From the IMG/VR virus record IMGVR_UViG_2681813228_000025: 19,575 bases of DNA, one strand, 5' to 3'. The first letter of the stretch is position 1. Each line of letters begins with the position of its first letter. A program made the position numbers and the translations under genes. The notes under the pieces are model-generated. The model was given only the letters and a program-made list of their open reading frames with translations, searched no databases and was not told the DNA's origin. This DNA is from a virus (Duplodnaviria > Heunggongvirae > Uroviricota > Caudoviricetes). This document shows positions 6,700 to 7,854 of this stretch, in pieces.

Positions 6700-6816
6700 C
6701 TATCGCCCTCATTTTTTAGTCCGTCATGTAGTCCATTCAAGCCAATAACAAGCGATAAACTAACTCATTATCAAGCAAAGAGAGGAAACTCATAAAATCA
6801 CAACTCATTGAAAAGA

Positions 6817-7854
6817 CTATGAAACGACACCAGAACATACAAACAGGTAAGAAATGTACCCTACATCCAAGAAACTGGCGATACGGGAGCGGCGCGGTTC
6901 ACCGGAAACGTTGCCGTTACGATCAATGACCTGACCTTCACGCAACCAGACTCCTGCACTATTGAGCTCACGCTTTTTCTCCGCAGTGATAATGCCGCTG
7001 CAGTGCGGGCAAAGTAGATACGCCGCCTCACTGGCTTTAAAGGGATCCGGTTCATTACGGTAGCCGGTCATGGCATCCATGGCTGGCTGAAAATATTCAC
7101 CGCAGTGCGGACATGACCAGTACCAGCGGCGGCGGTCACCACGATTGTAAAGGGAAAGAATACCAGTCGTCGGTGGCGCTTCATGAGGCGACTTACGTCG
7201 CCATTTGCTGTCGCAGATGTCACGTCCCGGCGAGCTCTCCACCAGAGTCATCCCGGCGGACATAAATGTGGTGGTACGTTTTGAGGCCAGGGAGAAACCA
7301 TCACCCTCGCTGTCGATATTCTCCGGAAAACGGTCGTAATCGGTTAAGGCGACAAACCGGTAATCCGACGACGACATAATGTTGACCGAGGGCCAACCAA
7401 TTTTAAGGAACGAGCCATCCCTGAACGTCTTATCATGGACATTATTGTCGTTACGACGTGGACTCATTCTTTTCTTTACCGCCGCACTGCTTCTGAACGT
7501 TCTGTCGAGGCGCTTTTTAGAATGCTCGCGGGCCTTATCTTCGGTCATCTGCACAACGAGCATGTCCGAAGGATCGCAAACGATGGTATAGACAATCCAT
7601 CCATCGATCAGACCAATGGTCTTCCCTGTTCGCGCAGGACCAACAAAAATCACCGCATCGTATTCACGCGATGCCAGGCAGTTCATGGGCTCAATGATGT
7701 AGGGTGTCAGTTCAGGATCCCATGGCACCGAGTTACCAGCCCCCTTGGGAACACGCATGAATTTTTTAACAGCCTCCGAAATCGGCATGCGACGTGGTGG
7801 GGAAAATCCTGCCGATATGTCCCTTCCCAAATTTCGGGCTGATGAAAAACCCAT
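6817..7854 (-). pseudogene. Terminase large subunit (GpA family), C-terminally truncated (345 codons, of which about 325 are homologous)
   Basis: P-loop VIFVGPARTGKT and zinc-ribbon pair CPHCG...CPHC as in lambda gpA, but ends after about 325 homologous residues in a non-homologous tail (LDVGYISYLFVCSGVVS) where composition turns AT-rich. Full-length GpA proteins are about 640 aa. Confidence 0.8.

Follow-up and report, generated by a model that had tools for sequence, protein, structure and literature searches.

Why should the gene for a phage's large terminase subunit break off next to the integrase gene of another element? This question is raised by a 19,575-nucleotide stretch of Caudoviricetes DNA (IMG/VR virus record IMGVR_UViG_2681813228_000025; the whole stretch is called the window below), in which a truncated large-terminase gene (terL) of a lambdoid prophage directly adjoins the tyrosine integrase gene (int) of a satellite-like island. 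We conclude, at a probability of roughly 0.85, that window positions 1-6870 are the integrase-proximal two thirds of a ~10.2-kb satellite of the phage-inducible chromosomal island (PICI) type, which its own P4/CP4-57-type integrase inserted into a Qin/cdtI-like terL, and for which we infer a life cycle like that of the helper-embedded PICIs (HE-PICIs).

The terL open reading frame (ORF; 6817-7854, minus strand, 345 aa) encodes the N-terminal portion of a lambda gpA-type large terminase, with a Pfam GpA_ATPase match over residues 40-303 (E 8e-81). An intact 699-aa homologue carries both GpA_ATPase (40-303) and GpA_nuclease (325-643), and the nuclease domain is absent from the 345-aa ORF. The initial annotation had noted that terminase homology is lost after about 325 residues, that the gene runs into AT-rich DNA about 160 bp from the integrase start and that this interval holds no tRNA-like sequence, all of which was sustained. 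Comparison with the intact TerL places the exact end of identity at F328, with the final 17 residues of the ORF (LDVGYISYLFVCSGVVS) encoded by island DNA; codons 1-328 (6871..7854, minus strand), which retain the ATPase domain only, are labeled 'phage terminase large subunit, missing C-terminus' by PGAP. The break between terL and the island falls at 6864-6870, ~165 bp from the integrase ATG at 6699, and the 164-bp spacer (6700-6863) has a GC content of 36.6% versus 52.8% for the terL fragment. ARAGORN detected no tRNA or tmRNA gene anywhere in the window.

Two origins had been proposed for this arrangement, namely integration of the island into the prophage terminase gene or a deletion or recombination that fused two elements, and the search for the missing 3' part of terL bears directly on both. 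Up to position 18908 the window is identical to Escherichia coli O121 strain RM8352, in which the island extends past window position 1 and there contains a gene for a protease-major capsid fusion and a 93-aa ORF. Outside the window, the nuclease half of terL was found at 10158-11276 of the occupied locus (L001), co-oriented and 10.2 kb away from the junction on the integrase side, where PGAP calls it a pseudogene ('terminase gpA endonuclease subunit, missing N-terminus'). Removing the island from the O121 sequence in silico yields a 699-aa TerL that is identical at 700/700 positions, stop included, to the allele of strain 08-00022, which has an uninterrupted terL in the same Qin-like prophage and whose flanks match both O121 junctions base for base. 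Comparison with genomes lacking the island, as the initial annotation had suggested, allowed attB, attL and attR to be aligned. The insertion point is terL codon 329/330 (..RIASF/WMEGP.., the slash marking the point), at the boundary of the ATPase and nuclease domains, and eight O121 genomes are 100% identical across the terL/island junction. The target gene itself is 99% identical to its counterpart in the isolated phages cdtI, Tritos and HannyBb, with 85% identity to terL of the mEp460 group and 72% to that of Gifsy-2.

These observations leave little of the proposal that a deletion, or an illegitimate or homologous recombination, joined two elements and that the terL truncation is unrelated to the integrase. 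Insertion sequence (IS) elements and deletions are indeed common in this prophage region, but the missing terL half is undamaged and sits exactly at the other end of the island, insertions in many unrelated terL alleles, and those in other genera, all fall at this codon and have the one core, and the empty Qin/cdtI-type site is present in 687 complete E. coli genomes. We consider a fusion of this kind scarcely credible. As a separate observation on the matching strain, RM8352 has an additional 1.3-kb IS3 at window position 18908 that the window lacks, the remainder being identical over 18.9 kb.

Integration at this codon is recurrent. The attL arm, the island DNA between the crossover point and int, occurs at 98 places, distributed over 90 of the 5426 complete E. 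coli genomes, some of which have two copies; carriers are mostly Shiga-toxin-producing serotypes and bovine isolates, and a terL fragment adjoins the arm in virtually every sampled row. The same codon is occupied in at least three prophage backbones (Qin-like, O157-type lambdoid and one with yfd-type early genes), and 2014C-4423 (L086, NZ_CP027454.1) holds the island twice in one genome, in the terL genes of two different prophages and with identical integrase proteins. Among 35 IMG/VR contigs we counted at least 11 terL flank haplotypes, all of them encoding ..SRIASF/WM. One IMG/VR contig represents an off-target event, with the island inserted at cactttt-TGGATG, ~260 bp downstream of the gene for a LysR-family regulator (L118 1-1330); in RM10410 (H285) no feature is annotated under the match, and this copy may be off-target too. 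In strain SC516 (L087 8289-9353), what remains is the terL stub with attL and 357 bp from the start of int, followed by IS1 and then chromosomal ydfJ; this appears to be a decay product in which a deletion took out the island remainder along with the distal prophage. SpLE2 of O157 Sakai was also considered as a copy of this island and rejected, its coordinates lying outside any prophage; the Sakai study further reports intact terminases in all lambdoid Sps except Sp4.

The attachment sites are short. attL spans 6700-6870, with attR and the terL nuclease half ~3.3 kb outside the window, past its start, and no long direct repeat flanks the island, only a short core. The direct repeat of 6700-6880 that had been anticipated at the far end was therefore recovered in part: the 180-bp interval is not repeated, but a TGGATG core is, within an imperfect similarity of 15-16 nt. 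In copies with clean junctions, the coding strand at attL and attR reads ..gccagtttc TGGATG TAGggtac.. and ..tttacttcttcc TGGATG gaaggg.. in A5 and W24, ..tcattc TGGATG tagggtac.. and ..cttcttcc TGGATG gagggtcc.. in KSC64, and ..tcattt TGGATG tagggtac.. and ..cttcttct TGGATG gagggg.. in O157:H7 F3113 and the second copy in 2014C-4423. The clean junctions share a 7-bp identity block, CTGGATG or TTGGATG, whose length fits the overlap region of a tyrosine recombinase, and they place an in-frame TAG, contributed by the island side, immediately 3' of the core. The P' arm of attL (6700..6863, minus strand), running from the core to int, holds a candidate arm-type site, TTTATCGCTT-GTTATTGGCTT, at 6739-6759. 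The 10-nt repeat TTTATCGCTT occurs co-oriented in both arms, ~95 nt upstream and ~104 nt downstream of the core, and its copy in the other arm is kept in KSC64, A5 and W24. The reconstructed attP reads ..TTACTTCTTC[C/T]TGGATGTAGGGTA...

The copy in the window departs from this pattern by a single base at each end. Its attL core (6864..6870, minus strand; T-TGGATG on the coding strand), located from BLAST breakpoints at query 225-231 and from junction comparisons, has one extra base (..cagtttcT TGGATG..), and the O121 attR is one base shorter (..cttcttc TGGATG..). The exchange was therefore displaced by one position from the usual register, to a point at which the two sides have just TTCT in common, and because the extra attL base puts the TAG out of frame, the 345-aa ORF continues into the AT-rich DNA. 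This +1/-1 junction was found only in the eight O121 genomes, all other occupied Qin-type sites being one base shorter. The genome of 2014C-4423 contains both a shifted O121-type copy and a clean copy with the overlap TTGGATG in a second, O157-like prophage, and a within-genome move into a Qin-type site (CTGGATG), which mismatches at the first overlap position, is a plausible origin for the O121 junction. Gene conversion between the two copies of one genome was rejected as its cause, since no conversion tract can lengthen one junction by a base and shorten the other. In silico, excision in the TTCT register restores terL, and excision in the usual TGGATG register frameshifts it, leaving a product truncated at 354 aa; judged from these junctions, the O121 copy may excise poorly or may leave a frameshifted terL behind.

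The gene content of the island points to a PICI. Genes between position 1 and ~8400 of the window lie on the minus strand, apart from a divergent segment at 3925..4485 (plus strand). The integrase gene (5461-6699, minus strand, 412 aa) is intact, matches Pfam Arm-DNA-bind_3, Phage_int_M and Phage_integrase and retains all candidate catalytic residues (R246, H334, R337, H360 and Y370); its protein, WP_000114064.1, is identical in the O121 and O157:H7 copies. Beside it, a 67-aa helix-turn-helix protein (5244..5447, minus) resembles AlpA/excisionase-type regulators (phrog_66 'excisionase and transcriptional regulator', E 9e-7; weak Pfam HTH_17), and is followed by an anti-repressor-like Bro-N domain protein corresponding to the PICI 'Bro zone' (4606..5184, minus; Pfam Bro-N, E 5.6e-20; phrog_2593 anti-repressor). 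The divergent segment contains a YlcI/YnfO-family gene and a 65-aa ORF (PGAP; phrog_6522 and phrog_21027), after which an Icd-like or repressor-like small protein, a 106-aa hypothetical protein and a DUF4222 protein are encoded within 2905..3727 (minus; PGAP and PHROG matches). Next comes a D5-type primase/helicase (1082..2908, minus; Pfam D5_N, DUF5906 and Pox_D5) that is 86% identical to the primase of the characterized HE-PICI 11capE. Downstream of the primase gene, an AT-rich gap at 891..1074 (GC 0.355) holds GGTGAACAGT repeats (families D1, D6 and D16; seven exact copies), and this iteron region is the probable replication origin of the island; in Gram-negative PICIs, ori lies downstream of pri (PMC10111431). 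An 81-aa ORF, a gene for a single-strand DNA-binding protein (SSB; 130..552, minus; Pfam SSB, E 3.7e-16; PGAP) and the protease-capsid gene complete the order. The protease-capsid protein is intact at 629 aa and 51% identical to an intact helper-type protein. This protease-major capsid fusion is the only capsid-formation gene in the island, which has no portal, head-tail connector or terminase genes of its own, and none of its ORFs has a psu, sid or delta function by PGAP annotation or PHROG matches. Other variants of the island carry a DUF1441 gene of their own, in the small-terminase position, near the far end (KSC64, L005 5593-6078; A5, L088 3403-3888), and KSC64 additionally has tail-gene fragments; this content suggests capture of helper late genes and perhaps redirected packaging.

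The host of the insertion is a lambdoid siphovirus-type prophage of the Qin/cdtI-like group. Upstream of the terL stub, a DUF1441 protein (7863..8390, minus; Pfam DUF1441, E 1.9e-44) occupies the small-terminase (TerS) position between cos and terL. A helper cos-like site upstream of the DUF1441 gene (8541..8614, minus) aligns to the joined lambda ends as CGGGTCCT..CCGGTG..ACG/GGGCGG..CGCGG and to two copies in the island. Copy A, downstream of ssb (14..88, minus), aligns with both the helper site and the joined lambda ends, for which the sequence used was GGGTCCT..CCGGTGGGG..CACG/GGGCGG..CGCGG; copy B lies outside the window at L001 ~12090-12155. The two island copies are ~2.5 kb apart, flank the protease-capsid gene and both resemble the helper cos. 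Helper and island are co-linear from the Q antiterminator and lysis genes through cos, the TerS-like gene and the terL stub to int and the regulator gene, and the minus-strand orientation is kept throughout the TerS-like gene, terL stub, int, regulator, primase, capsid gene and terL 3' half. A scan of the attL arm predicted no terminator-like or promoter-like site on the minus strand between the terL stub and int.

Two further features of the prophage portion may be recorded here. The helper protease-major capsid fusion gene is a pseudogene both in the occupied Qin-like prophage (L001 6469-8496, internal stop) and in the empty one (L002 7594-9620, frameshifted). An Rfam scan of the window for immunity RNAs and tRNA-like elements returned just two cspA thermoregulators, both in the prophage part; these are full-length leaders (RF01766) of late-region cold-shock genes at 10844-11230 and 13707-14130 (minus strand).

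Could the island nonetheless be a generic integrative element, functionally unconnected with the prophage, for which a conserved terL sequence simply serves as an attachment site? Its helper dependence is deduced from sequence features, and one chromosomal insertion, that beside the LysR-family gene, is off-target. Weighing on the other side, however, are the two cos sites homologous to those of the helper, the helper-type protease-capsid gene, the PICI replication module close to that of a characterized HE-PICI, the strict co-orientation of the island with the late operon and the position of the integrase relatives, described below, which lie downstream of phage late genes in every case examined. 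Together these make a generic element very unlikely.

For the satellite that we favor, the published behavior of 11capE supplies a model: the composite of helper and satellite excises and replicates, and the satellite excises subsequently (Tommasini, Mageeney & Williams 2023, PMC10111431). The HE-PICI layout has been argued to delay the interrupted late gene and to give the satellite passive replication and late transcription (PMC10111431). By analogy, the lysogenic helper would be unable to make TerL while the island sits in terL. After induction, Q-dependent late transcription would pass the TerS-like gene and the terL stub and reach int and the gene for the excisionase-like protein; read-through from the stub into int is proposed because the late genes, stub, int and regulator are co-linear and no terminator is predicted between stub and int. 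Excision of the island would then repair terL, the island would replicate from its own primase and iteron origin, and the repaired helper terminase would package it via the island cos sites, into capsids perhaps built or altered by the island protease-capsid protein. The initial annotation had held that the insertion would disable packaging by the resident prophage; this applies to the integrated state, but the published model and the co-orientation of the island suggest a reversible interruption rather than plain inactivation.

Several points weigh against such a cycle, and in particular against its operation in this copy. Excision, replication and packaging of the island are all carried over from the HE-PICI model, the island occurs in no sequenced phage record, and the reconstructed 24-mer of attP, diagnostic of the excised form, was not found in IMG/VR or metagenome contigs. 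The window has a register-shifted junction at which TTCT alone is shared, so that recombination in the TGGATG register would frameshift terL. The candidate arm-type site consists of one 10-nt repeat, for which a hand estimate gives ~0.1 chance occurrences. Additionally, the window's island variant has no recognizable small-terminase or Rpp-type gene, the DUF1441 gene being carried by the A5 and KSC64 variants, and the O121 helper is decayed, with an internal stop in its capsid gene, a truncated integrase and IS elements.

These points feed a narrower alternative, in which the window copy is the fossil of one out-of-register integration into terL of an already defective Qin-like O121:H19 prophage, incapable of clean excision and with no present function beyond terL inactivation. 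The confinement of the +1/-1 junction to eight O121 genomes, the frameshift expected from usual-register excision and the state of the helper all agree with such a dead end, as do the decay products seen elsewhere, among them SC516, where IS1 stands in place of the island remainder and distal prophage sequence, and the absence of attP from the public contigs searched. Yet the integrase is intact and its protein identical to that of clean-junction copies, the two terL halves are undamaged and form a perfect ORF in the TTCT register, all the island genes listed above are intact in annotation, and help could come from other resident prophages. We regard a dead end as possible but rather doubtful, and it concerns this copy alone rather than the kind of element.

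The helper-embedded satellite layout was published in 2023 as HE-PICI, with Eco567.11capE of E. coli NRG857c as its founder (PMC10111431), and the island described here resembles it closely. As in HE-PICIs, a late gene of a lambdoid helper prophage is split, here at terL codon 329/330 with both halves present; the island is co-oriented with the interrupted gene, with int first and directly downstream of the 5' fragment; and the zones follow in the order int, AlpA-like, Bro, replication and late/capsid, matching 11capE gene for gene, with the similarity of the two primases already given. A homologue of a helper head gene is carried, off-target chromosomal insertions exist and co-oriented repeats are found in both attP arms. 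The integrase, by contrast, has just 25% identity (86 bits) with 11capE Int. The HE-PICI survey applied an integrase cut-off of 400 bits to 11capE Int, and the 120 best relatives of the island integrase all score at most 105 bits against that protein. The site also differs, being in a GpA-family TerL, whereas the published terminase sites are A:Terminase_1:132 and :245/246, and the att strings of the island are absent from the attL and attR files of the survey. The doubled tgTGTATTGCantgTGTATTGCa motif at attP -81 and +132 is not present here; the island has TTTATCGCTT at about -95 and +104 instead. TGTATTGC does not occur in the att arms, its sole occurrence in the 43-kb locus being far from them.

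The CP4-57/P4-type integrases have the same domain set as the island enzyme and are its nearest relatives outside the late-gene clade described below (34-45% identity), and in both, int is transcribed away from an attachment site ~200-300 bp distant. Here, however, the island enters a protein-coding phage gene instead of a tRNA or tmRNA 3' end, and the incoming attP does not rebuild that gene but, at clean junctions, supplies the in-frame TAG after the core. P4-like satellites differ in using a P2-type helper and carrying psu, sid and delta, whereas this island has no such matches and its helper is lambdoid; capsid-forming PICIs (cf-PICIs) differ in having their own capsid, portal, head-tail connectors and terminase, in place of a protease-major capsid fusion only. 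In the phage regulatory switches known as 'active lysogeny', a prophage interrupts a host gene and its excision restores that gene. The present case would be similar as a reversible interruption by a site-specific element whose excision, here in silico, restores the frame, and differs in that it is a gene of the helper phage that is interrupted, by a parasite of that same phage. Gram-negative PICIs such as EcCICFT073 are likewise ~10 kb in size, with int-alpA-pri, a capsid-related gene and lambdoid cos helpers, and classical PICIs differ in occupying chromosomal sites separate from the helper (Fillol-Salom et al. 2018, as summarized in PMC10111431 and PMC10085698). Compared with the published kind, three things are new: the site, at the ATPase/nuclease boundary of a gpA-type terL; the lineage of the integrase; and the hint that a second late-gene clade exists.

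This hint comes from the relatives of the integrase. A large protein database contains a graded series of them in Enterobacteriaceae, and a search of species-representative genomes yielded none closer than 40% identity. We read the genomic context of 14 relatives at 44-87% identity, and in 14/14 int lies just downstream of co-oriented phage late genes, although for several the interruption of the upstream gene was inferred from gene tables alone. The two closest of those detailed here, from Salmonella (76%) and Rahnella (68%), occupy the same site in a GpA-type terL with the same TGGATG-TAGGGTA junction. Others adjoin a protease-capsid gene (Salmonella, 63%), a lambda-like tail region (E. coli, 60%), a lambda-like gpA cut after the ATPase domain (Klebsiella quasipneumoniae, 55%; its TerL 23% identical to the window's), a major capsid fragment covering profile positions 4-65 of 251 (Raoultella, 52%) and a head gene after Pa193_gp24 (E. 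coli, 50%). At lower identity, int follows a Terminase_2 small-terminase gene, with a 96-aa ORF lacking a Pfam match in between (E. coli, 49%), a baseplate region with a myovirus-type baseplate gene (Enterobacter, 49%), the ATPase part of a Terminase_6N-type TerL (Pantoea, 48%), a head gene after the portal gene (Pantoea stewartii, 45%) and a tail-tip region (Providencia, 44%). Clade members at 44-100% identity come from Escherichia, Salmonella, Klebsiella, Raoultella, Enterobacter, Pantoea, Rahnella and Providencia. Of 48 relatives at 34-40% identity, from other orders, 44 have a co-oriented tRNA or tmRNA gene that precedes int by at most ~600 bp. The description of the terL site as unusual for a P4-type integrase thus holds against these distant relatives but not within the enzyme's own clade, for whose 14 inspected members late genes are the rule.

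A rough neighbor-joining tree, without bootstrap and rooted on 11capE Int, places all late-gene integrases in one clade nested among CP4-57-like enzymes. We lean towards the view that they form a second, independently evolved integrase clade with phage late-gene tropism, nested among tmRNA/tRNA-targeting CP4-57-like integrases and ~25% identical to the HE-PICI clade. The 2023 description assigned the layout to one integrase clade (PMC10111431), and a search of the literature library available to us returned no later paper describing a second. Two side observations touch on this group. Islands with related integrases leave ATPase-only stubs of ~330-347 aa (L104 3325-4365, L100 3349-4353 and window 6871-7854), and the stub-bearing terminases belong to two Pfam families, GpA, in two versions only 23% identical, and Terminase_6N. 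A related island with a 52% identical integrase also sits in a major capsid gene on the 42-kb ENA contig vOTU_01619 (L098), which is named as a viral operational taxonomic unit; a virome origin of this contig would mean that the entire composite may be packaged.

A satellite placed in its helper's packaging gene couples both life cycles in cis: packaging by the helper has to wait for the satellite's departure, and the embedded satellite is copied and transcribed together with the helper. If the second clade is true, helper embedding evolved at least twice and reaches beyond lambdoid helpers, hitting terminase, capsid, tail and baseplate genes in several genera, and the strategy would be convergent and probably much commoner than surveyed. 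Such insertions confuse prophage- and satellite-prediction tools, and they offer natural attB/attP variant pairs as material on how tyrosine integrases gain new targets. For Shiga-toxin-producing E. coli (O157:H7, O121, O145, O103, O111 and O45), the implication is that prophages that look defective, with a 'truncated terminase', may instead be conditionally intact.

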